Shown piece after piece: positions 1,601-60,132 of a stretch of 64,000 nucleotides of DNA. The notes beneath the pieces are model-generated. The model did not search any database. It saw nothing but the letters and a program-made list of their open reading frames with translations, and was not told the DNA's origin. The position numbers and the translations under genes were made by a program. The stretch lies in NCBI GenBank assembly GCA_024613925.1, contig GCA_024613925.1_4713.1. One strand, written 5' to 3'. Position 1 is the first letter of the stretch; each line of letters starts with the position of its first letter. The stretch comes from a phage.

Positions 1601-1616
1601 TGCAACGGTAACATAA

Positions 1617-1648
1617 CCCTCTCCCTTCCCTTACGGGTTGGGAGAGGG
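1617..1648. terminator. GC-rich hairpin between convergent genes (ccctctccc...gggagaggg), followed by CTTATGCTG
   Basis: 9-bp perfect stem with inner ccc/ggg pairing, read from sequence. Confidence 0.55.
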
Positions 1649-1665
1649 CTTATGCTGTTATGTTA

Positions 1666-12957: not shown

Positions 12958-15900
12958 TATAATAGCCTAATCCTCGGAGGATCTCTCCACTCCAGAAACC
13001 AAAATACATTCCGTCTCTGCCGAGATTAGCGCTATCTGGTGCAGGACTCCACCCACCATTCATTACGTCATCAACGGTGTAGCGGTTGATGTAGTTCTCA
13101 ACGATTTCGTTATACGCATTAACCGCAACAGAATAGCCTTTATCGTTGGGATGTCCGTACAACATTGCTAACGACGCACCCGCCAACCATAATCCTGCCA
13201 TATGACCAGTAAAATCATTAGGGATAAAAGCAGGGGGTTTATCCATCGGAAAATCCGTAGGAGATTGATAAGCGTTTTCCTGTTGATACGTAAACAAGAA
13301 ATCGATCCAATGGCTGATGTAAGTGGTTAACTTCTCAGGGACGGCTAAACCACGATCGAGCAGTCCAGCATAAAGCCTCACCGCTGAGAAGAAAGCCCTC
13401 GGCTGATAACCAGACCATGCCGTCTGATCGCCGAAGTGGTACATCGTAAAATCATTAACTTTTGATCCGCTTGGCGCATCCCAACGATCCCACACGTACG
13501 CACTTGCCCCTGGCCCTAAAACCCCGAATTTCTGATAATACCACTGCTGCGAGTCATACCAGAAATTCACAACATTCTGAATCATGAGGTCACGTCGTTC
13601 AGCCGATACGTCCATATCCAGGAAGACCCATGGATGTTGGTAGCCGGGATAAGGCTGACCACGCCAACTGTCGAACGTCGGTGCGTTAGGGACATAGTTG
13701 TTCGAGAACGGAATAATACCCGGAGTATAAGGCAATGGATCCAGACGTTGGTTGACAATCGTACAATCGCCAACACGCAGTGTGCCCTCCGCCTCAAAGG
13801 TTGCTTTTAACGTAAACAGCATGGTATATCCGTCATCCGTGGTGTAAGTTGACGGTGGATTGTTGATGGCGTAAAGCTTAAATACCCCTTCAGCGATATC
13901 GCCGTCGTCAGGCAAGAACAGAATTTCAGTTGAACCATCGCCCCACACAGGTGCAGAAGGTTTAGGGTCAGTATCAGCGTGGCCCGGTTGATACCCTGAG
14001 AGCGTCCATCCGTTCGCCGAAAGCGTCAATGTATTTCTTGCTGTGGTGGCCGGTAGCATATACCACCATCGCCAGCCGTTTGTATCTTCTACACGAACGT
14101 TGTAGTCAATCGACGCGAAATAACTGACCTGCCTTACGATCTGTTTTGCGGTCGGATTGAATTCAAATTGCCCGCCTGCCGCAGTAAGCTGCGCTTTTAG
14201 GAACAACCCATCCCAGGAATCTTCCACCGCTTCGCTGAATTCTGTTGTGATGGCGACATCATCTTTCCAGCCGACTTTATCAGCCGATATCAACACAGAA
14301 CCTGTAACAGCATCGCCGGTTGGCGTTGAAGCTTCATCAACCGCATCAGCAGGAATCAACGAGCCTATTTTGAAATCCCATTCTTTCGGCTCGGCACTGG
14401 AAGGTAACACCAGCTTGTACGTTTTGGCTTTCGCTTCGGTTTTGTCCAAAGAAAGCGATAATGAGATCTCAACCGGAATTGCAATACCCGCTGTATCTTT
14501 ACCACCGCAGGTTACACGAAGAATTGAATCACGATTGACGCGGAACGGAATAGCCTGCTGTTCAAGGTAAATTTGTGCTGAGGATGCTTGAATCACGATC
14601 CAGCCGTCAGTATCACGTGTAATTGTGAACGGTGCTTTCGATGGATAGGTATACGTGTAAGCGATACCGTCGGTGTCGTAACGATCGGTTCCTTTTACCT
14701 GACGGAAGAACTTATCGTTGGCGTCGATACGAGTATATTCTTCAATCGTAAACAACGATGCCTTGTACGCTTTCTGATAGCGCTCCTGCTGCGTTAAACT
14801 GTATAAGGTGTAGGCTGCTTCACAAAACCACTGTTCAGCGTCTGACGCGTTTCCCATGTAGTCTCTGGTGACCGGCACCTGGATCGGTCGGTTATGCTGA
14901 CACTCGTTCGTTTTGATGAGGTATCCGCCATATTCAACAGGAACGCGGGGTGCCCACGCAACCAAATAAGAACCGCTGACGGACTTATCTTTGAGTACGA
15001 TGGTGCCCACCTCATCGTCAGTACACGCTTCAAGATCGTCCCCGCCCACACTTACGTATCGTTTTGTGCGTAACGCAACTTTCTCGATAGGGAACACCGT
15101 ACCCTTTGTATCCCAGTCAATCGTCCCATCATCATTGGTTTTGAACACATCGGCGTTCAAATTCTGCCAGCCGAGTTTACCCTCATAGACCTGAACAACA
15201 AGATCCATGTATTCCCCGAACGTTGGTGCCCCATGTGTTATTTTCCCGATACCGTTGGTGAATGTAACCGCGGTGTCATGGAAACCGCCATGTGTCGGGT
15301 AATCGTTTTTTGCAAGAGGATAATGGGCCAACACCGGCTGTTTACCATTAACAATCCAGTTAGCGATCCAGCGTGCCGGTGTATCCGGTGGTTCAAGACC
15401 CGCATAGAACGCTTTTATATACGCATCGAACGATGCCTCCGCTAATGTGAGATAGTGCGCTTTAAGCTTGGTATCATCCGTTGTATGACTGAATATACCC
15501 GCACCCAGAATTAACAACGACTGTCCTTCTGTTGTTGCGTCACCATCCGGTTGTGCTTCTTGTCGTGTTGCTGCAATGAAATGACGGTTGTTTACCATGA
15601 CCCCGCTTTCATTTAACACGTAATGATCGGTTTCTGGATCGGTAAACGTTCCTGTGTTTCGGGTTAAGAATCTTGCATGGCCATAACCAACGAAATTAAC
15701 CGGCGACGCTGTAATCATCCATTTACCGATAAGTTGAGCAACATCATTATAACGCTCGGATGCGGTGATTTGTTTCACGTACCAGTCTTTACGGTTAAAT
15801 GTCCAAAGCAGGAAGTAATAAGTTGTATCGATTTCCATCACTGGGAACGTCGGCGTTAACGGCTCCAGCATTAAGTAGTTGCTCCAGTCAATCTGTCCGC

Positions 15901-19723: not shown

Positions 19724-19778
19724 GATGATTTCCTTCTTTATTAGGATAATTACGTTTTAGTCAGTTTAACAGCATAAA

Positions 19779-19803
19779 CCCTTCCTGCGTAAGGCAGGAA
19801 GGG
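19779..19803 (-). terminator. GC-rich hairpin (cccttcctgc...gcaggaaggg) followed on minus strand by TTTATGCTG
   Basis: 10-bp stem read from sequence. Confidence 0.55.
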
Positions 19804-19817
19804 CATACGGATTTGTT

Positions 19818-20315
19818 TTACGTGTGTCGTCGTTTACCAAAGAAAATGTGGCTGTCTACCACGGTGATATTGGTAGCATGTTTTCTGAAATGTTTAGGGC
19901 GAAGATGTTTCGTGTTAAAGAATACGGCTCCTCGTGTTGGGTCGGCTTTATGGTAAGCCGCAATGTCAGTATAACGTAATGTTGCGACCTCTCGTGCTAT
20001 TGCTCTTGCTCGCTCAAAAGCAGCATGATCGCGTATGATAATACGCCTTTGTTTTGTCCAGGGGAATTGACCTCTTTGCAGTACGACGTCTTTGACGTTC
20101 GTAGGGAATCGGTAGTCCATAGATCGATTATGTATTAAAAACGCCACGGAGTATTGCCCTTTTACAGATTCGCCTCTGGCTTCCATATACACGGCGCATG
20201 CGACGATCTCTTTCCGGCAATCGATTCTAGGTCCTGCGTTCACTGATGCTTGACTGAACGGTGTGATAAGCAACATAACAAGCCCTAAAATCAACGTGTG
20301 TAAAATACCTTGCAT
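19818..20315 (-). CDS. SleB-like cell wall hydrolase with N-terminal signal peptide (candidate lysis enzyme)
   Basis: Motif CAVYMEARGE typical of SleB/Hydrolase_2 family; signal peptide ending SQA; SD GAGGT. Confidence 0.6.
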   Translation of the reverse strand: MQGILHTLILGLVMLLITPFSQASVNAGPRIDCRKEIVACAVYMEARGESVKGQYSVAFLIHNRSMDYRFPTNVKDVVLQRGQFPWTKQRRIIIRDHAAFERARAIAREVATLRYTDIAAYHKADPTRGAVFFNTKHLRPKHFRKHATNITVVDSHIFFGKRRHT

Positions 20316-20856: not shown

Positions 20857-21249
20857 TTAAGATTCTCCGTGATACCCATAACCTTCATCCTCGACACGTC
20901 GACACCTCGGTAAAAATAAACACCAGCTTGTTGCACTGAGGATCGCCGTTGCGATGATACTTGCGATATCACCCAGTCGAGCATCGACCTGCCACATAAC
21001 AAGCATAAAAAGCCACATAACAAGCATAAAAAGAACGTACGCGAACCCATACACGATAAACCGTTTGATGTTGCGCGTCGACCCCGTACAAATATACAAA
21101 AGGGGAAGCTGCCCTATAACACAAACGATGGTTCGGATAACGTAATAAACGCGTTCCGTCGTTGTTTCAAAATCGATATTCGTTGCAGAAATCCCGATCA
21201 TTATAAAAGTGAAAAAGAAATAGATTTTTGCGTATGTCTTTAAACTCAT
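20857..21249 (-). CDS. multi-pass membrane protein containing a 21-bp in-frame tandem duplication
   Basis: Hydrophobic segments; duplication 20991-21032 encodes repeated MLVMW. Confidence 0.45.
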   Translation of the reverse strand: MSLKTYAKIYFFFTFIMIGISATNIDFETTTERVYYVIRTIVCVIGQLPLLYICTGSTRNIKRFIVYGFAYVLFMLVMWLFMLVMWQVDARLGDIASIIATAILSATSWCLFLPRCRRVEDEGYGYHGES

Positions 21250-22729: not shown

Positions 22730-23047
22730 TTAGTTTGCACGTAAGAAATGACCCAGAACCGTTACGATTGGAAACAGTCCTGTAACAGTACCATCGCCCG
22801 AAAACATCATCATTGTTCCGTTAACGGTGATGAAACGGATGTCGGTTGCGGACCCATCGATAGCGACAAAACGCATCGAGTTCGGTGGAAGGTCCTCAAC
22901 CACTTCCACGAGATACTCGCGATTATCAAAGGCTTCTTTAACACGACGCATGAAACGAATCAATGTTCCTTCAGCGTCGGCTTCCAAATGGCCTAAGATA
23001 TCGCGATTATTACGAACAGCGAATACAGCCATTTTAAACATACACAT
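22730..23047 (-). CDS. hypothetical protein
   Basis: 105-aa ORF downstream of 24-nt conserved motif. Confidence 0.45.
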   Translation of the reverse strand: MCMFKMAVFAVRNNRDILGHLEADAEGTLIRFMRRVKEAFDNREYLVEVVEDLPPNSMRFVAIDGSATDIRFITVNGTMMMFSGDGTVTGLFPIVTVLGHFLRAN

Positions 23048-23113
23048 CTTGACATCCTTTTATATTGGATTGATTGCTAATAATTCAAGGTGAAGCTGAT
23101 TACTGCATTGCTT

Positions 23114-23137
23114 CACCTAAGTAATATAGCCGTGAAA
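23114..23137 (-). promoter_or_regulatory. conserved 24-nt intergenic motif, copy 1 (minus-strand reading TTTCACGGCTATATTACTTAGGTG), adjacent to hairpin 23088-23118
   Basis: 23/24 identical to 50604-50627; both upstream of minus-strand genes. Confidence 0.35.
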
Positions 23138-40897: not shown

Positions 40898-41019
40898 CTC
40901 GTCGTAAAAGTAAATAGAGTTTTGTCGAGACGCCCTAATTACTTACAACGTCGGTTCTCCTGGCTTCAGAGAATTCTTAAAATCCGTTAGTTTTGATGGA
41001 CGGGATATGGCAGCATAAA

Positions 41020-41040
41020 AGCCTCCCATTACGGGAGGCT
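41020..41040 (-). terminator. GC-rich hairpin agcctccc atta gggaggct, followed on minus strand by TTTTATGCTG
   Basis: 8-bp stem. Confidence 0.55.
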
Positions 41041-42221: not shown

Positions 42222-42330
42222 GTTTTATTCCTTAGTAGTCCTAGTAGTAGTATTGAGGAATTTCACCTCATTAGATAGTCTAATTTAGTAATGTTTTACT
42301 GAGCTATTGTTAACCCCAATACGAGCATAA

Positions 42331-42362
42331 CCCTCCTCCAACCCAACAGGGAAGGAGGAGGG
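42331..42362 (-). terminator. GC-rich hairpin ccctcctcc...ggaggaggg with inner ccc/ggg; followed on minus strand by TTATGCTCG
   Basis: 9-bp stem. Confidence 0.55.
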
Positions 42363-42371
42363 AATATGCTG

Positions 42372-42686
42372 TTATTCTGTTTTCGGTGTTGAACCGTTCT
42401 TCTTGAAGTCGGATTCGTATTTCACGTTAGAATCGAGAACCTCACGAACGGTTTTATCTGTACAACCACGAGCGATGTACGCATTAAGATCGTCGCGTAA
42501 TTTACGCATCGTTGTTTTATTAGCATCAGAAATATCTGACTTGGTAAGACGGAATGCAATTGCATCACGAACTTTATTCAGCGTTGCTGGGTTATTACGC
42601 TGTTCTGCAAATACCGCTTTGATGAATGTACCGCTATCTTTCGAAGCGATGGCTGCATCAAGAATTTCAATATGCTTTTCAGACAT
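42372..42686 (-). CDS. hypothetical protein
   Basis: 104-aa ORF. Confidence 0.5.
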   Translation of the reverse strand: MSEKHIEILDAAIASKDSGTFIKAVFAEQRNNPATLNKVRDAIAFRLTKSDISDANKTTMRKLRDDLNAYIARGCTDKTVREVLDSNVKYESDFKKNGSTPKTE

Positions 42687-48466: not shown

Positions 48467-48742
48467 TTAAAAATCCACACCGCGACCCGTCATCGACGAA
48501 GGAACCGCGCGATAATAGAAGTAGATGTAATGGTCACGATGGCTAAAATAGTTTTTGCAAGCATAGAACTCTCCAGATCCAATGAATGATTTAATACGTG
48601 TAACTTGAGGGTGTCGTGTGAGTAACGCCTGTAGAACGATTTCCATTTGGTGTGCGCTCAAACCCGGTCGAGCTGCGACATGATAATGAAGCTCCTTAAG
48701 AAATCGCTTCCAGGGGTCAGGTTGTGTCGATGATCGAGACAT
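48467..48742 (-). CDS. hypothetical protein
   Basis: 91-aa ORF. Confidence 0.45.
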   Translation of the reverse strand: MSRSSTQPDPWKRFLKELHYHVAARPGLSAHQMEIVLQALLTRHPQVTRIKSFIGSGEFYACKNYFSHRDHYIYFYYRAVPSSMTGRGVDF

Positions 48743-48779
48743 CTTTATCTCCTTAACAGGTGCTGGTAACGCAGCATAA

Positions 48780-48799
48780 GCCCTCCCCGAAGGGAGGGC
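48780..48799 (-). terminator. GC-rich hairpin gccctccc cgaa gggagggc, followed on minus strand by TTATGCTG
   Basis: 8-bp stem. Confidence 0.55.
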
Positions 48800-49366: not shown

Positions 49367-49845
49367 TGATCTAATTGCTCCAGAAACGCACGACCCGATT
49401 TACTTGCTTTTAAATGCTGTTCTGCGGAAGTAAGCAGAAGATCGGTTGGTGTGAATGCAGCGCTACCTTTCCACGCTGTTTTCAGTTTGCCCTTTTCGAT
49501 ACTGAACTGAATCAGTTGCTGGGTACCGAAGTTAAGCGTGTTCGTCGCGGCGCTAAATACACCACCCATCATGCTGTAACCAAAGACTTTCACGTTTTCC
49601 GTGTAGAAGTCATTGTCGATCAATTTGTTCTGGAGCTCGAGTTGGTCGGACGGCAGCAATCCCCCATCAAAGATGCTTAAAATACCAGCCAGGCGATACA
49701 TACTCACCTTTCCTGAAACACCCACCACGTAATTGCCGTACACGGTTTCTTCCAGTTTAGCAACAACGGTGCGATCGTCGGAGGTTTTCATCGAAACCTC
49801 AATACCATCACCAACTTCTGTTAATGTTAAATCAACGATACTCAT
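49363..49845 (-). CDS. hypothetical protein
   Basis: 160-aa ORF, 4-nt overlap. Confidence 0.5.
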   Translation of the reverse strand: MSIVDLTLTEVGDGIEVSMKTSDDRTVVAKLEETVYGNYVVGVSGKVSMYRLAGILSIFDGGLLPSDQLELQNKLIDNDFYTENVKVFGYSMMGGVFSAATNTLNFGTQQLIQFSIEKGKLKTAWKGSAAFTPTDLLLTSAEQHLKASKSGRAFLEQLDQ

Positions 49846-49867: not shown

Positions 49868-50554
49868 TTAACACATGATTTCACCATGTTTCTTTTCAAC
49901 ATACGTATAAACGTCATCCAAATAAGCAATGAGTTTATCACGATCCGCACACAGCGATTTAATCACCGCAATCTCTTTCATATAAAGCTGCTGACCTAAC
50001 GCCGGATAGGTAATCCAAGCGTAGCCGTCAGGCGCAAATTTAGAAATAAGATAATCAGCGGTTTCCTGCAAGGCGAACTCTTTGCTCATCTGGCCGTAAC
50101 GGTGTTCGATTGCACGGATACCAAAACGTTCGCTATCAAGACGACCCATATCCGCCAGACGAAGCACCTGAGAAGCAACCGAGCTACGTGGACCAGAGTA
50201 CGAGGCGCGGTGTTCAGCAATAAGTACGCGTATCTCCTCGATGTCTTCCGGTGTGAAAATATGCTGCTCGTTACGAAGCAGGATAACCGATGCACGAATA
50301 CCCCCGATAAGGTGGTGGTATGTTCTGTTTTCGTGGCAAGCGATATCATGCATAAAAGCAGCGGTTAATAGACGACGACGTTCCGTAGGTCTGATGATCC
50401 CAACCACATCAGCAAGTTCATTTGCCAGTTCAACAACAGCAAGCACATGTTCTTCTTGATGGGCAAGATCGTTCTTCCGAATATTTTCAATTACTTCAGC
50501 GCGAGTTTCCTGAGATAAGAAATTTAAACAATCCAACGAATATAAAGATTTCAT
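49868..50554 (-). CDS. HD-domain phosphohydrolase
   Basis: EEH...AAFMHDIACH...D pattern. Confidence 0.5.
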   Translation of the reverse strand: MKSLYSLDCLNFLSQETRAEVIENIRKNDLAHQEEHVLAVVELANELADVVGIIRPTERRRLLTAAFMHDIACHENRTYHHLIGGIRASVILLRNEQHIFTPEDIEEIRVLIAEHRASYSGPRSSVASQVLRLADMGRLDSERFGIRAIEHRYGQMSKEFALQETADYLISKFAPDGYAWITYPALGQQLYMKEIAVIKSLCADRDKLIAYLDDVYTYVEKKHGEIMC

Positions 50555-50603
50555 CGCACGTACCTCTTTGAATCGGTAGATAGATTAATAGATATTGATT
50601 ACT

Positions 50604-50627
50604 CACGTAAGTAATATAGCCGTGAAA
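50604..50627 (-). promoter_or_regulatory. conserved 24-nt intergenic motif, copy 2 (minus-strand reading TTTCACGGCTATATTACTTACGTG), ~50 nt upstream of HD-domain gene start
   Basis: 23/24 identical to 23114-23137. Confidence 0.35.
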
Positions 50628-50706
50628 GGATTTGTGTTGGTCCGTTTCGATGCCTATCGTATTTTATGGATTGTCGAATGACGTCATTTTAAGGGACATC
50701 CCCGGC

Positions 50707-50740
50707 CTCCTCCCCAGGAAAGGTGTGGGGAGGAGTTTTT
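50707..50740 (+). promoter_or_regulatory. GC-rich hairpin ctcctcccca...tggggaggag followed by TTTTT, in divergent intergenic region upstream of helicase gene
   Basis: 10-bp stem plus T5 on plus strand; no plus-strand gene upstream within window. Confidence 0.4.
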
Positions 50741-50770
50741 ATCATACATTCTATTAAATCGAGCGCGATT

Positions 50771-52852
50771 ATGTTGGATAGAATCAATCGTTTAATGAAC
50801 CGAATAACGGTTAAAAATCAGAGTAACAATACCGTGCATATCGGGGGTATCGATGCCTGGCGTCTTTCAGATGACATTCAGCGAATATGGGGTACCTCCC
50901 GATTTATGAAACATATGTTTCGTAATTTCTCTTCTAGTGGACTCAGTCTCCACAACTTTTACCTTCCCGATTTCGTTTATATTCTCGAAACGATCATCGA
51001 GGCAAAGAATACTCGCAGTAATAAACGCATGCTGAAACACCTTATTGAGGTACTGCTGCAGGAAACCTGGTTGCAAAATACCACAATCGAGCAACCTGCA
51101 ATCCTCGATAAAGCACGCATGAACAAAATGCTAACGCTCTCCCTGTTCGATTATCAAGATGAGTTTATCGACATCTATAACCGTAACGTACCTAAATATC
51201 GACTGAAAGGATACGTGTGCGCGATGGGTGCGGGTGCGGGTAAAACAATCACCGCATTGGCTTTAAGCGCCGCAATGAACGTCGATGTATTTGTGGTTTG
51301 CTGTCCTAAGAACACCATGCGTTCAGCATGGCAATCCGATGTAAACAAAGCCATCGTTGACCCTGCAACAGAAACCGCGTTCTGGTCAGATACAATGCCC
51401 CCATCACAGCTGCAGAAAAGCGATAAGTATTATTTTCTGCATTACGAGTCGATGGGTTTATTAAACGAAGTAATGATCAAGCATAAACGCACAGCGAAGC
51501 GCGTGTTGATCGTGGTTGACGAAAGCCATAACTTCAACGACAAGAACAGCCAACGTTCCCAACGACTGGTTGATCTCGTACAGACGATGCGTCAGACCAT
51601 GAATGCGGATGTGCATGTCTTGTTTATGTCGGGTACGCCTGTTAAACAGATGGGTTCTGAGATGATCCCCTGTTTAGGTTGTATCGACCCGATGTTCCAA
51701 GGACAGGTGGTCGATAGCTTCAAAGCAATTTACGGTTTAACCAGCAGTCGCGCTAACGATATCCTCAGACATCGTCTTGGGTTCATGATGCATGTCGTAC
51801 CTAAAGAGGCTTACCGTAAAACCCGTCCGGAAGTTCAGGATGTTTACGTGAAGCTTCCTAACGGTAGCGATTATACCATCTCGAGCATTCGTGACGATAT
51901 GGCGATATTTGTACGCGATCGGGCGAAGTATTACAAGGATAACTGGGGGCATTACAGAAAGATTTTTGATGACGCGTTGGACTACTATCGCAAGACTATT
52001 CGTACCGATGGTGAACGTAAAGAGCTATCTCGATACGAATCGATTGTTGCTCGTTTCCAGAAAGGTTACGACCCCGTCAGAGACAAAGAAGATGCGATGT
52101 TCTGCAACACGTTTGAAAAACGAGCGATCATGCCGGTTCTTCCTTCCGATTTAAGGGTTGCTTTCAAAGACGCCAAGAGCGTCATCAAGTACGTTGGGTT
52201 GAAAATTCAGGGTGAAGCGTTGGCGCGTGTTCTAGGTGCAGCCCGCATTCGGTGTCATGTCGACATGGTGGAATACATCGACTTCGAAGGGTACATCAAC
52301 AACGCTGAAGCCAAGGTGTTGATCTTCACGTCGTATGTTCAGGTGGTTGAGCGCGTCGACAACCTGCTTCGTGATGCGGGTTTCTTACCTGAACCCATTT
52401 ACGGGAAGACCAACAAGAACATCAACCAGATACTTGTTCGTCTACGGGACGATCCTGACAGCGGTCCCGCTATCGCAACATTTGATAGCTTAGCTGAAGG
52501 GGTTCCGATGCTGATGTGTAATGTGGGTCTTTTCCTGAACAACCCGTGGCGTTCGTCCGATGAAATCCAAGCCATCAGCCGTCTCGATCGTGTAGGGCAA
52601 ACGCAACCTGTTCGGATTTATCGTTTCATGTTGGATACAGGAAGCGAGGGTAACGTTTCTACACGTAGCCACGAAATCATGGAGTTAAGTCGGCAGCTTG
52701 TTGAAGAAATCACGGGTGTCAAATACGTGGTGAACAAGCAAGACGATGTTAACTTGCAAGAAACGTTGGCGATGGAAGGATACGATCAATACGTTACCGT
52801 AAACACCACGGAATACGATATTAAACCGCGACCTGCGTTCTTGGAATGGTAA
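50771..52852 (+). CDS. SNF2-family (SF2) helicase/ATPase
   Basis: Walker A GAGAGKT, DExH VVDESHN, C-terminal QAISRLDRVGQ; start set at ATG 50771 downstream of hairpin. Confidence 0.7.
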   Translation: MLDRINRLMNRITVKNQSNNTVHIGGIDAWRLSDDIQRIWGTSRFMKHMFRNFSSSGLSLHNFYLPDFVYILETIIEAKNTRSNKRMLKHLIEVLLQETWLQNTTIEQPAILDKARMNKMLTLSLFDYQDEFIDIYNRNVPKYRLKGYVCAMGAGAGKTITALALSAAMNVDVFVVCCPKNTMRSAWQSDVNKAIVDPATETAFWSDTMPPSQLQKSDKYYFLHYESMGLLNEVMIKHKRTAKRVLIVVDESHNFNDKNSQRSQRLVDLVQTMRQTMNADVHVLFMSGTPVKQMGSEMIPCLGCIDPMFQGQVVDSFKAIYGLTSSRANDILRHRLGFMMHVVPKEAYRKTRPEVQDVYVKLPNGSDYTISSIRDDMAIFVRDRAKYYKDNWGHYRKIFDDALDYYRKTIRTDGERKELSRYESIVARFQKGYDPVRDKEDAMFCNTFEKRAIMPVLPSDLRVAFKDAKSVIKYVGLKIQGEALARVLGAARIRCHVDMVEYIDFEGYINNAEAKVLIFTSYVQVVERVDNLLRDAGFLPEPIYGKTNKNINQILVRLRDDPDSGPAIATFDSLAEGVPMLMCNVGLFLNNPWRSSDEIQAISRLDRVGQTQPVRIYRFMLDTGSEGNVSTRSHEIMELSRQLVEEITGVKYVVNKQDDVNLQETLAMEGYDQYVTVNTTEYDIKPRPAFLEW

Positions 52853-52860
52853 TTAAGAAG

Positions 52861-52886
52861 CTCTGCCTGATGTCAGGCAGAGCTTT
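52861..52886 (+). terminator. hairpin ctctgcct gatgtc aggcagag followed by CTTTATGCTG
   Basis: 8-bp stem 9 nt after helicase stop. Confidence 0.55.
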
Positions 52887-52912
52887 ATGCTGCGTTCGCT
52901 GCAAAATCGTAT

Positions 52913-55779: not shown

Positions 55780-57354
55780 TTACAATTCAAAATCTTCATC
55801 GATAACGCGCTGGGTAAGCACTTTGTCGCTGAAGAACTCCACCTTGCGCTGATGGTATTTACGGTGCGCTTCAATAGAAGTACATACCAGATACCAGAAC
55901 GTTGGTGTCATTCCTTCAAACTTCCCTTTCAGCTGACGCAGTCGCCCCAACACCTGAATGTTACCGGTTCGTGACCCCATCGCTAATGTCATGAACGTCA
56001 TCACCAAGTCAGGAAGGTCGATACCTGTACCTGCCGATTTCACGGTTGTAACGCTGATATCGTTATCCAACAAGACCATGAAATCTTCTTCAGCAGTATA
56101 AGGACCAATCTCTAACTCAGGAATACGTTCACTGAGATAATGCGATAACGACTTACACATATCAACGGTTGCACAATACACCAGCATCTTCATACCTTCC
56201 TGATACTGGTTCATGAAACCTTTGATGATAACCGTATAGATAAAGTTGAAATAGGCGAGTTTGAGTTGCTTGTTCTTCATGATAGACTGTTCGAATATCG
56301 TGTGAGAATAAGAACCCCCAAACCCTTTGTATCTGACTTTATCTGTACTGCGTAGTCGATACGTCACGGCATTTACCGCAATGTATTTCTTGTATTCGCA
56401 TTTCGCATAACGCGCTTCTTTCGGATACATCAAATACAACATCCGCTCGATGAACGGATCGTCAGACACCGCTGTTGCCGACAGATAGATGATTTCCGGA
56501 ATATTTGCATAGCACTTCACTTTGAACAAGAAATGCAAGGCTTCATGGCATTCATCGTGGATCAACAACCCAATACCTGTTTTCTCCCAGAACTCGGCGG
56601 GATGGAAAACATAAGGTGCGACACAATTGTTCTTTTCATAATCGGTTATGTATCTCTGAAACATGTTCAGCGAGAATAACGCAATTTTGAAATCCAGCTC
56701 ACCTTGTTCCACCAACGTCTGGAATTCCAGCATGCTGTAACGAGGAATGTCTGGATGCGGTGGGTCAGATTGGGCTGTACCGCGTATCTCGATAACATCG
56801 CCTGGTTCCATACCGAAGAAACTTAGCAACGAGCTGCGCCATCCAGGCATGTATCTCGGTGACAGAATAATGCCCGTCCGTACACCACGTCGGAAGGTGA
56901 TCTCCTGCGACATGGCTGTTTTACCACTGCCCGTGCCTGCGGTGTTTAGGCTCATTCTGAAGGGGGTATCCTTACCCCCATCCATGTACTCCAACCATTC
57001 TTGCTGATCTTCGCGCCACGGGAACTTCCATTTCTTTACGAACTCCACTTCCTTACCTGGCACCGGATCGTGATAAACGATTTCCAACCACTCTTTTCGG
57101 ATTCCTCGAGAGAAGATAAAATCCAAAAACGATTTCAACTGTTCACGGAGTAAGTATACCTCGCTATAATCGCTTCTTGCCGCGGCATACGTGTTTATGG
57201 TATCGGTAACCATTCTCCGTGTACGAGGGTCACGTCGTTTCCTCAGATGCAAACAACGGTCTCGAAGGTAATGGCCGATAAGATGGGCAAATCGAAGTCC
57301 GTATCCGCTCAGCCTCATGCCATGCGAGAAGACGTCGATACGAGCTAACTTCAT
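55780..57354 (-). CDS. DEAD/DEAH-box-like SF2 helicase
   Basis: Walker A GTGSGKT, motif II LIHDECHE, motif III SAT, TAT... GRLRQ. Confidence 0.65.
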   Translation of the reverse strand: MKLARIDVFSHGMRLSGYGLRFAHLIGHYLRDRCLHLRKRRDPRTRRMVTDTINTYAAARSDYSEVYLLREQLKSFLDFIFSRGIRKEWLEIVYHDPVPGKEVEFVKKWKFPWREDQQEWLEYMDGGKDTPFRMSLNTAGTGSGKTAMSQEITFRRGVRTGIILSPRYMPGWRSSLLSFFGMEPGDVIEIRGTAQSDPPHPDIPRYSMLEFQTLVEQGELDFKIALFSLNMFQRYITDYEKNNCVAPYVFHPAEFWEKTGIGLLIHDECHEALHFLFKVKCYANIPEIIYLSATAVSDDPFIERMLYLMYPKEARYAKCEYKKYIAVNAVTYRLRSTDKVRYKGFGGSYSHTIFEQSIMKNKQLKLAYFNFIYTVIIKGFMNQYQEGMKMLVYCATVDMCKSLSHYLSERIPELEIGPYTAEEDFMVLLDNDISVTTVKSAGTGIDLPDLVMTFMTLAMGSRTGNIQVLGRLRQLKGKFEGMTPTFWYLVCTSIEAHRKYHQRKVEFFSDKVLTQRVIDEDFEL

Positions 57355-59357
57355 AACGTGATTACATCCTCCGGTTTAGGTTCTTTACGCGGTAACAGCA
57401 TGTAGTCGATCGGATGATCCGGCTTCATGGTTGGGATATAACTGTTCGGGTTTTGGAACGCATCCAGCTGCTCTTGGTGAGCGAACTTCATACTCAAGGA
57501 GCGCATGTTCATGTTCTTCTTGAAGGTACTGAAGTATCGTGTTGTTCCCTGTTTCGGCATGCGATAATCTTTCGTGTGTGGCGAACGAATCATGCTGGCG
57601 TAGAGAATAACATCGAGATGCGAAAGGTTCATTCGCAGACGCTGGGCACACAGACGATGCCAATAGTACAGCACGTTTGCAACTTCCTCCGGTGTTGCTT
57701 CGTCTTCCGAGAGGAATCCGGCACTGAAAGAACATTTCCCGAATTTGAACTCACGTTCGATTTCTTTTGCGTACTCCATCATGTTTTTGTGGATTAACGG
57801 CATCTGGAATAACGTACGTGAATTGTCCCAGTGTTTCAAGTCGAAAATCACAATCCCGTCAGACGTCACTTCCCAGCTATGGCGTTTGAGGTAACGGATA
57901 AACGCTTTACTCGGTACAACAGGACGACCACAGAAATCGAAATTGACTTTGAGCTTACGATAGCTTTCATCTTTCCTGTCGTAAATCTCCATATCGCAAA
58001 GCGTCATGTTAAACAGACGTTGCGGTATCAGCGAACTGATTTCTTCCGCTTCCGCTACGTCATACAACATGTTCGCAAGACCTAACTTCATCTTAATCAA
58101 CACGTGTTTACCTTTCAGCTCACGTGCGAGTTTGATGTCGTTCATGTTCTGGCTGTAGCGAAGGATATGTTGATATTCCGGTGGGATTGGTGCTGTGGAT
58201 ACCGTTGACGAACCATCGTGATGTTTGGTAGAAAGAATGTTCTGCGTTACCTGTTGCGAACAGGTACGTGCTGCACCATCACCGACATTATCAGTCAATG
58301 CGAAGTTATGACTTAATTCACCGTAACACGTCGTACATACCCCAGCAGGATCGGGATGATGACAATAGTTAACGGAGCGCATGCGTACCGTCGTACCAAT
58401 CAATTCTTTCATGTGTGGCTGTATCGCTACCAACGAACCGTCATCACGAATAATGAATCGACCGTGGAAGCCACGCAGGTCGGTCTCATCACGGATTGGC
58501 ATCGGGATGGTCTCTTTACTACCACAATCACCAGGATGGAGTCGCTGTACAACCGCCGTCGCTATCTGAAGTTCACGACCGAAATATTCAGACTTTTTAA
58601 TCTGCTCTTTGTTGAACAGCAACGATTTCGCCGCAGAACGACTTTCTTTCAAGCTGTCAGGAAGAGAGATCAAACCGGCTGCATACGACCGCATTACCGG
58701 ATCGCGGAATATCTCGGAGTTAATATCGGTCAAGAATCCACGCATCCCAATACACTGCAGCACCTGCCCAATCGAAACGTGTTCGGTTCTTACCGCACGT
58801 GCAATAGGGTTTGCATGTAGCGTTTTATCGGTGCTCAGTACCTTCGTCAGTTTCTTGTATGCGCTTTCAATGCCTTCGCGGGTGGGTTCCGCTTCGGCGA
58901 TGATTTTCTTAACTTCGGGATGTACGGTAATCTGATAAAAATCGTCCGCGCAAATCGTTGTTACGTATTCCTCCAACGCATACGTAAAGAAGTTATATAC
59001 ATTGTTAAACATATCGAACAATGCTTTCCAGAGAACCTCACGATTCTCTTGCGGATAAGCATACATGCATTGACGATACGCGGCGCTTTGCAACGCAACC
59101 GATGAACCCGCTGTGAACTTGCGTTTATCAACCAGGTTCTCTTTTGTCAGTGGGGTCTCAGGATACATGCGATGCACAGACCAGTGCATGTAACTAAAGA
59201 AAATGCGTCGCGCACGCAATTCATGAACGCCATCGTCCATCTCGATATACACACGGTCATTAGGCTGTGCCCACTCGAACACCTCATCAACCGGCCAATG
59301 CATAAGCTCGCGTGCCCTCACACGACGTTTCGTGGTGGTTGTCTGTGTTGTAATCAT
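57351..59357 (-). CDS. RNA polymerase beta-prime-like subunit, C-terminal portion (bridge helix and trigger-loop region)
   Basis: By-eye alignment to bacterial RpoC: GMRG (bridge helix) and RSVNYCHHPDPAGVCTTCYGEL...GDGAARTCSQQVTQNILSTKHHDG vs RSVVSCDTDFGVCAHCYG...IGEPGTQLTMRTFHIGG. Confidence 0.6.
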   Translation of the reverse strand: MITTQTTTTKRRVRARELMHWPVDEVFEWAQPNDRVYIEMDDGVHELRARRIFFSYMHWSVHRMYPETPLTKENLVDKRKFTAGSSVALQSAAYRQCMYAYPQENREVLWKALFDMFNNVYNFFTYALEEYVTTICADDFYQITVHPEVKKIIAEAEPTREGIESAYKKLTKVLSTDKTLHANPIARAVRTEHVSIGQVLQCIGMRGFLTDINSEIFRDPVMRSYAAGLISLPDSLKESRSAAKSLLFNKEQIKKSEYFGRELQIATAVVQRLHPGDCGSKETIPMPIRDETDLRGFHGRFIIRDDGSLVAIQPHMKELIGTTVRMRSVNYCHHPDPAGVCTTCYGELSHNFALTDNVGDGAARTCSQQVTQNILSTKHHDGSSTVSTAPIPPEYQHILRYSQNMNDIKLARELKGKHVLIKMKLGLANMLYDVAEAEEISSLIPQRLFNMTLCDMEIYDRKDESYRKLKVNFDFCGRPVVPSKAFIRYLKRHSWEVTSDGIVIFDLKHWDNSRTLFQMPLIHKNMMEYAKEIEREFKFGKCSFSAGFLSEDEATPEEVANVLYYWHRLCAQRLRMNLSHLDVILYASMIRSPHTKDYRMPKQGTTRYFSTFKKNMNMRSLSMKFAHQEQLDAFQNPNSYIPTMKPDHPIDYMLLPRKEPKPEDVITL

Positions 59358-59502
59358 TATTACTTTCCGATTTAAATGGTTTTATCATACGGTTTACCAA
59401 TTCCGTTGGAATTTACTATCATCATGATAGCATCGGGAATCCCTTCTCTTAGGTTATGTAGGTGTTAATATATCTCCACTACCGGAGTAAAAGTCGGCAA
59501 CA

Positions 59503-59988: not shown

Positions 59989-60102
59989 AATCTCATTTCC
60001 TCTTCTACGTAGAAATAGATGACATGTTGGATATACGTTGCCTTTGCATATATTGCTTTATTTCCGTCAGAAATAACGGAAAATAAAAACAACGACATAA
60101 TT

Positions 60103-60132
60103 CCCTCCCACCTCCACATGGGAGAGGGAGGG
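60103..60132 (-). terminator. GC-rich hairpin ccctccc...cacatggg...gggaggg, followed on minus strand by AATTATGTC
   Basis: Imperfect stem read from sequence. Confidence 0.5.

Follow-up and report, generated by a model that had tools for sequence, protein, structure and literature searches.

A probable early promoter of the phiKZ-like class in the gap between an HD-domain gene and a helicase gene of a Goslar-like jumbo phage

A stretch of phage DNA of 64,000 nucleotides (the window) contains the 24-mer CACGTAAGTAATATAGCCGTGAAA at positions 50604-50627 of the plus strand, in the gap between two divergent genes. Which of these genes does the element serve, and which polymerase reads it? The first-pass annotation had described it as the second copy of a motif, 50 nt upstream of an HD-domain gene and inside a divergent intergenic region, and had proposed that the region is a regulatory hub for a switch to plus-strand expression. 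The coordinates bear out the placement: the edge of the 24-mer is exactly 50 nt away from the ATG (50554) of the minus-strand HD gene, and the opposite border of the gap is formed by the plus-strand helicase gene. Allowing up to 3 mismatches, the only further match in the 64 kb window is located at 23114-23137 (+) and has 1 mismatch. In 100 dinucleotide-preserving shuffles the 24-mer had 0 matches, and a repeat search joined the two copies in a 25-nt repeat family. Because both copies are situated upstream of minus-strand genes, the motif is to be read on the minus strand, in the form TTTCACGGC-TATATTAC-TTA(C/G)GT-G-A. The coordinates are collected in Table 1.

Table 1. Positions in the window of the motif copies and of neighbouring or related features, with corresponding elements from distant phages
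Feature	Position	Strand	Remarks
24-nt motif, copy 2, about -23 to +1 of the promoter	50604-50627	-	reads TTTCACGGCTATATTACTTACGTG; identical in Goslar and UViG_3300011560
Full promoter footprint	50600-50640	-	A-rich -30 CCAACACAAA, -20 TTTCACGGC, -10 core, initiation region GTGA
Core octamer TATATTAC, about -14 to -7	50611-50618	-	identical to the published phiKZ/201phi2-1 early-promoter core
Predicted transcription start, G, 6 nt past core	50604	-	predicted by the phiKZ/phiR1-37/AR9 rule
Copy 1 of motif, upstream of gp105 homologue (22730-23047)	23114-23137	-	core 23121-23128
Weak third candidate	59446-59492	-	core TACATAAC at 59453-59460; reads TTAACACC-TACATAAC-CTAAGA-G
HD-domain phosphohydrolase gene (Goslar gp159)	49868-50554	-	Pfam HD E=5.5e-8
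SNF2/DEAD-type helicase gene (Goslar gp160)	50771-52852	+	Pfam ResIII, SNF2, Helicase_C; PHROG DNA helicase
Predicted 5'UTR of HD-gene mRNA	50555-50603	-	Shine-Dalgarno AAAGAGG at 50563-50569
Terminator-like hairpin	50707-50740	+	stem CCTCCTCCCC...GGGGAGGAG, then TTTTT(AT)
TTATGCYGY-type hairpin	about 1612-1661	+	
TTATGCYGY-type hairpin	about 19740-19785	-	
TTATGCYGY-type hairpin	about 40980-41026	-	
TTATGCYGY-type hairpin	about 42326-42375	+	
TTATGCYGY-type hairpin	about 48740-48787	-	
TTATGCYGY-type hairpin	about 52850-52893	+	
TTATGCYGY-type hairpin	about 60060-60108	-	
RisingSun element			TTTCAAATC-TACATTAC-TAATGT-G
Proteus phage 10 element			TATATTAT-TAGTGT-G
Vibrio phage pTD1 element			TATATTAT-TTTAGT-G

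With Escherichia phage vB_EcoM_Goslar (MK327938) both motif regions share 96-97% identity; no other record of the phage collection matches. The HD protein and gp159 of Goslar agree in 99% of their amino acids. Goslar, a member of the Chimalliviridae, is a jumbo phage of E. coli that forms a nucleus and encodes two multisubunit RNA polymerases with split beta/beta'-like subunits. Phages of its group are independent of the host RNA polymerase. Their early genes are transcribed by a virion-packaged polymerase (vRNAP), the middle and late genes by a second, non-virion one (nvRNAP). Transcription in phiKZ-like phages and AR9 is rifampicin-resistant and, for phiKZ and AR9, also proceeds without need for new protein synthesis. 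According to a review, a conserved AT-rich element with its centre near -10 precedes the early operons in each of these phages. A virion-packaged vRNAP has been reported for Goslar (bioRxiv 10.1101/2023.09.20.558163); up to 2017 none of the vRNAPs in this family had been obtained in purified form (PMC5312081). The window encodes two phage RNA polymerase beta-like subunits, which are barely detected by Pfam and clearly identified with PHROGs (E=6e-170 and 2e-180). More RNA polymerase subunits are annotated in Goslar.

The published early-promoter consensus of phiKZ is TATATTAC, that of 201phi2-1 is TTAWTAVAA_HYWTTTRARR_BTATATTACDWHDGTG (PMC7058600 Table 2). In AR9 the corresponding arrangement is AAATATATATTAT-(6N)-G+1, and in phiKZ and phiR1-37, too, transcription starts 6 nt past the element (PMC5312081). 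By this rule copy 2 would initiate at G 50604, giving a 5'UTR of 50 nt, and copy 1 at G 23114 with a 5'UTR of 67 nt; the Goslar counterparts of these two positions are 142786 and 113783. No significant structure is predicted for the leader of the HD gene (z = +0.83), and an Rfam scan of 50300-51000 at E<=1 returned 0 matches.

The timing of the genes concerned was taken from the per-gene reads in Sup. Table 2 of Armbruster et al., which compare a nucleus knockdown with its control at 30 min and do not constitute an early time course. Knockdown of ChmA blocks the nucleus, and the resulting transcriptome matches that of the wild-type at 5-20 min with r > 0.93 (Armbruster et al., bioRxiv 10.1101/2023.09.20.558163); the start site of chmA was mapped in the same study. 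According to log2 fold change the genes separate into two classes, nucleus-independent genes at about 0 to +1.3 and nucleus-dependent genes at about -3 to -8, with RefSeq-to-GenBank gene numbers after gp186 assigned by table row order.

How is the motif distributed with respect to these classes? In the whole Goslar genome TATATTAC occurs 10 times, and all ten are on the minus strand. Eight of them carry the extended motif and reside in gaps directly upstream of minus-strand genes, namely gp004, gp105, gp159, gp175, gp182, gp189 (chimallin, chmA), gp221 and gp236. The RNA-seq table also contains early blocks without an exact TATATTAC: gp014-021, gp037-040, gp044-047 and gp070-075. These four blocks had been listed ahead of a scan with a position weight matrix that was built from the eight extended sites. 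The next four matches of this matrix in the genome score 22.6-33.5, the best one after them 8.1. They are located at 15067, 43266, 49732 and 86705; each marks the upstream end of one of the four listed blocks, and the core is TACATTAC each time. A fifth, weaker match at 187639 heads the gp210 block. This brings the total to 13 Goslar sites. Every one is on the minus strand and in sense orientation to its downstream gene, and 12 are intergenic. Each of the nine nucleus-independent blocks is headed by one site; the remaining 4 sites are internal.

The consensus of the 13 sites reads tAat.cAaaa.atTTcAcGnc-TAyATTAC-yTAnrTGA. It contains both the -20 element (TTTRARR) and the A/T-rich -30 element when compared with 201phi2-1 and N1M2, and a G occupies the predicted start position in 13/13 sites. 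With a matrix of these 13 sites copy 2 scores 43.2 over a background of <=6.7, and copy 1 scores 50.5. In the published literature searched no Goslar-specific promoter description was found.

The Goslar site 49732 (core 49725-49732, predicted start 49718) directly follows a terminator hairpin and is contained in the annotated CDS Goslar_00047 (49584-49772). An early-promoter site inside a CDS implies that the annotated start codon of Goslar_00047 is probably wrong. Further, all 13 sites are on one strand and most plus-strand genes are nucleus-dependent, and the early program thus appears strand-exclusive. Exceptions among the plus-strand genes are Goslar_00190 (about -0.7) as well as Goslar_00145, 00172 and 00202, whose values place them in the early class; the values of the latter three possibly originate from unstranded antisense reads.

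Inspection of the genes adjacent to the 13 sites gives a uniform picture. The gene directly downstream is nucleus-independent in every case (log2 fold change +0.5 to +1.3); of the genes downstream of the eight extended TATATTAC sites, seven come close to the +1 ceiling and gp236 reaches about +0.5. On the opposite flank the neighbouring gene is nucleus-dependent (-3 to -7) at 9/13 sites. Copy 2, which heads the largest early block (gp159 down to gp094), is such a case: upon ChmA knockdown the log2 fold changes of gp159 are +1.11, +0.90 and +0.96, those of gp160 are -5.1, -5.3 and -5.8. Expressed differently, blocking the nucleus lowers the reads of gp160-161 by a factor of about 30 to 50 and leaves gp159 unaffected. 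The knockdown counts, possibly not strand-specific, amount to about 320 reads for gp159 (0.69 kb), i.e., about 467/kb, and to about 12 for gp160 (2.1 kb), i.e., about 6/kb.

Hence, the gap 50555-50770 separates two divergent, differently regulated transcription units. Since the helicase gene is nucleus-dependent (log2 fold change about -5) the motif is not its driver, and since gp160-161 are of the opposite temporal class a different, nucleus-stage promoter must serve them. Of the proposed hub for the plus-strand switch a promoter and an early/late boundary persist. The motif itself is directional and serves the HD operon, and an action on the plus-strand island is contradicted by the common direction of all 13 Goslar sites and by the temporal class of gp160-161.

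Copy 1 is positioned inside the gp159-gp094 block. From gp106 to gp105 the knockdown density increases from about 474 to about 1006 reads/kb, and across copy 1 the log2 fold change climbs from about +0.1 to about +1.0, a pattern consistent with an additional, additive 'booster' promoter inside the block, ahead of gp105. The weak third candidate of Table 1 precedes the RNA polymerase beta-like gene 57351-59357 by 89 nt. Its score is 24.8 in the window, the orthologous Goslar site scores 15.9, and across the candidate the log2 fold change moves from about +0.1 (gp166) to only about +0.5 (gp165).

An 8-bp inverted repeat, GGTGAAGC ... GCTTCACC with a 13-nt loop, covers 23089-23117 (-), and the predicted copy-1 transcript starts inside it, which would leave a 5-bp stem at the extreme 5' end of the RNA. 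In a 91%-identical relative the stems are unchanged and the loop has 4 substitutions. The repeat may form a 5'-terminal stabilising stem-loop of the copy-1 RNA. Elsewhere in the window, a perfect tandem duplication of the 21-mer GCCACATAACAAGCATAAAAA is present at 20991-21032 (+), and a third copy, 81% identical, at 20270-20290.

To what extent is the motif conserved? In the window, Goslar and UViG_3300011560 (about 93% identical) the conservation of both copies extends from about -35 to +8. Promoter, hairpin and helicase leader are invariant across the three Goslar-like genomes; the sole part of the gap which differs from Goslar is 50572-50596, in the middle of the HD 5'UTR, with an 8-nt insertion and about 5 substitutions. 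Orthologous sites differ only at degenerate positions of the consensus, e.g., GAC-TACATTAC vs GGC-TATATTAC or TTACGTG vs CTAGGTG. At a larger distance, homologues of the HD protein with 30-34% amino-acid identity exist in RisingSun, Proteus phage 10 and Vibrio phage pTD1. In all three, TAyATTAy-(6N)-G precedes the HD gene, or the operon that contains it, in sense orientation at a distance of 42-64 nt. An exact 17-mer scan of IMG/VR retrieved only Goslar, two Goslar-like genomes and one unrelated contig. The latter match was discarded as chance; that contig has none of the other motif features and no further family-like site.

We consider it highly probable, at roughly 90%, that the motif functions as an early promoter in a chimallivirus of the Goslar type and belongs to the class which is read by the virion-packaged vRNAP. 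A different view starts from the inverted repeat which the first-pass annotation had seen overlapping the motif, and which indeed exists: ATTACT at 50598-50603 and AGTAAT at 50610-50615. A regulator bound to this 6+6 repeat might control both divergent genes and the plus-strand switch, and the genes on the two sides of the gap are indeed opposite in their temporal class. We regard such an operator as very unlikely. The distal arm (50598-50603) is in the variable stretch, where the gap is least conserved; Goslar and the 93%-identical UViG_3300011560 have AGTAAA there, a 5/6 match. The proximal arm coincides with the promoter core's own invariant ATTAC, upstream of the predicted start. Further, the motif is asymmetric, 13/13 copies have one orientation to the downstream gene, 9/13 are not at divergent junctions, and at copy 1 the ATTACT arm has a different spacing (15 nt). 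Judged from the sequence, the repeat is probably fortuitous. An RNA hairpin formed by its two arms was likewise ruled out, one arm being upstream of the predicted start.

Might the host enzyme be responsible? TATATT within the core is a 5/6 match to TATAAT, and the element is 50-67 nt upstream of start codons, as if E. coli RNA polymerase used a sigma-70 promoter with TATATT as -10 hexamer at the start of infection. Against this, a search of 50300-51000 on both strands for two hexamers at 16-18 nt spacing found 0 sites where 1.7 are expected by chance. The conserved TTTCACGGC abuts TATATT and hence cannot serve as a -35 element, and conservation extends to +1..+4, which fits a phage-specific consensus of the rifampicin-resistant phiKZ-like phages. 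A sigma-70 promoter is therefore scarcely credible. We give equally little credence to a signal at the RNA level, by which processing or stabilisation of a long read-through transcript, i.e., cleavage or differential stability, would generate the rise in density. True, at copy 1, gp175 and gp182 upstream genes are also transcribed, and density alone cannot tell re-initiation from processing. Yet at copy 2 and at eight other sites the upstream side is nearly silent in the knockdown; provided that the counts cover both strands, this silence means that transcription starts de novo at these sites. Moreover, primary 5' ends have been mapped for this sequence class in phiKZ, 201phi2-1 and AR9.

The gap harbors another element, which had been termed an orphan hairpin. 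It does exist, and it has no co-oriented gene upstream, the nearest upstream genes all being on the opposite strand. It is not unique, and it resembles a phiKZ-type terminator. A 10-bp stem (50707-50735) is followed by T5 (50736-50740), with a dG of -24.4 kcal/mol and z = -2.2. The hairpin is 30 nt upstream of the helicase ATG and about 65 nt behind the early promoter. A terminator scan missed it, probably because the 9-nt loop exceeds the limit of 8; direct folding revealed it, and in Goslar it is annotated as a putative terminator. Sequences of 93-96% identity have 0 substitutions in the hairpin, hence no covariation. With the conserved phiKZ terminator motif BCCYCCCCHWWDGGGRRGGBYTTATKYYGT (PMC10914365) it shares the pyrimidine-rich stem CCYCCCC/GGGRRGG and the subsequent TTAT; it differs in the flank, which is CATAC and not KYYGT, and in the lack of a co-oriented unit upstream.

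Terminators within 5'UTRs are frequent in phiKZ and 201phi2-1, where they produce short RNAs by conditional termination. T102 and T131 of phiKZ, like the present hairpin, are placed before a gene; they yield short RNAs of 71-141 nt. It is conceivable, if rather doubtful, that the hairpin is a conditional leader terminator or insulator which aborts vesicle-stage transcription of the plus strand and is read through only by the nuclear polymerase. As a leader terminator it would possibly release a short RNA of about 70-100 nt. If true, the hairpin would be a cis-acting gate that helps to enforce the early-to-late switch in chimalliviruses.

Other G+C-rich hairpins in the window are followed by TTATGCYGY or a close variant; their stems are mostly pyrimidine/purine-rich, and they match the phiKZ terminator motif (Table 1). 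In Goslar, rises in log2 fold change from about +0.3 to about +1.0 are observed at gp184/gp183 and gp200/gp199 (about 166900-166930 and 180565-180617), where no early-promoter motif is present, only a terminator hairpin plus TTATGCCG. Inspection by eye of 48 regions upstream of nucleus-dependent Goslar genes found no shared late or middle promoter, nor the promoter of the helicase; the sole recurrent element was a terminator hairpin plus TTATGCYGT. Because the 3' flank of the terminators holds TATG, the core of phiKZ late promoters, coupled terminator-promoter modules are conceivable.

An early promoter at these positions suggests the following course of events. The vRNAP would enter the cell together with the DNA, read the -30 region, the -20 element TTTCACGGC and the -10 element TATATTAC, and initiate at the G six bases past the core, 50604 in copy 2 and 23114 in copy 1. 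From the first minutes onward copy 2 would drive leftward transcription of the HD gene and of a block of about 66 genes of mostly unknown function. Further along this block, 27.5 kb downstream, copy 1 would re-initiate and roughly double transcription. The helicase gene would remain silent until the phage nucleus exists and would then presumably depend on the nvRNAP; the terminator-like hairpin ahead of it would most likely be part of its leader, or else an insulator. That the vRNAP is the enzyme at the motif we infer by analogy and from the timing. Because promoters of this class are read by vRNAP and not by the sigma-70 holoenzyme, a fragment carrying the motif is expected to be silent in uninfected E. 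coli.

The 13 sites provide a testable early-promoter map for Goslar-type phages, the main E. coli model of nucleus-forming phages. The map explains why the published early transcriptome is organised in blocks, and by it the early program appears to be placed wholly on one strand. It also offers candidate vRNAP-specific promoters for engineering and reporters in an E. coli system. The HD/helicase gap represents a clean early/late boundary at which one may study how two phage polymerases stay apart.

Conceptually, nothing goes beyond what is known from phiKZ, 201phi2-1 and AR9. Promoters of the class to which the motif belongs had been described before in phiKZ-like phages, and because, according to reviews, bioinformatics can recover such a motif from every phage of the group, the Goslar set is an addition to a known class. 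AR9 has in common with it an AT-rich -10 element with TATATTA, a 6-nt spacer to the G start and an injected multisubunit polymerase; unlike Goslar, AR9 is not a chimallivirus, has uracil-containing DNA, and its motif lacks the TTTCACGG -20 element. The consensus of N1M2 ends in ...TTTCARRYAKATATTATYWAAGTGWA and that of EL in ...TACATTATY (PMC7058600 Table 2); the TACATTAC variant, as in EL, is used at 5/13 Goslar sites. From phiKZ, with its 28-32 sites, Goslar differs by having 13, all on one strand, and from phiKZ and 201phi2-1 by its host, E. coli, and by start sites which are predicted. With both it shares the core TATATTAC, the G 6 nt after the core, ...GTG, and the occurrence in multiple copies which are intergenic, sense, and head early operons, the chimallin gene included. 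The three-part layout is that of 201phi2-1; the upstream TTTCAcGG of the Goslar sites fits TTTRARR and is preceded by an A/T-rich -30 region. On every point of sequence, distribution and expression the motif agrees with the phiKZ-like early promoter class.
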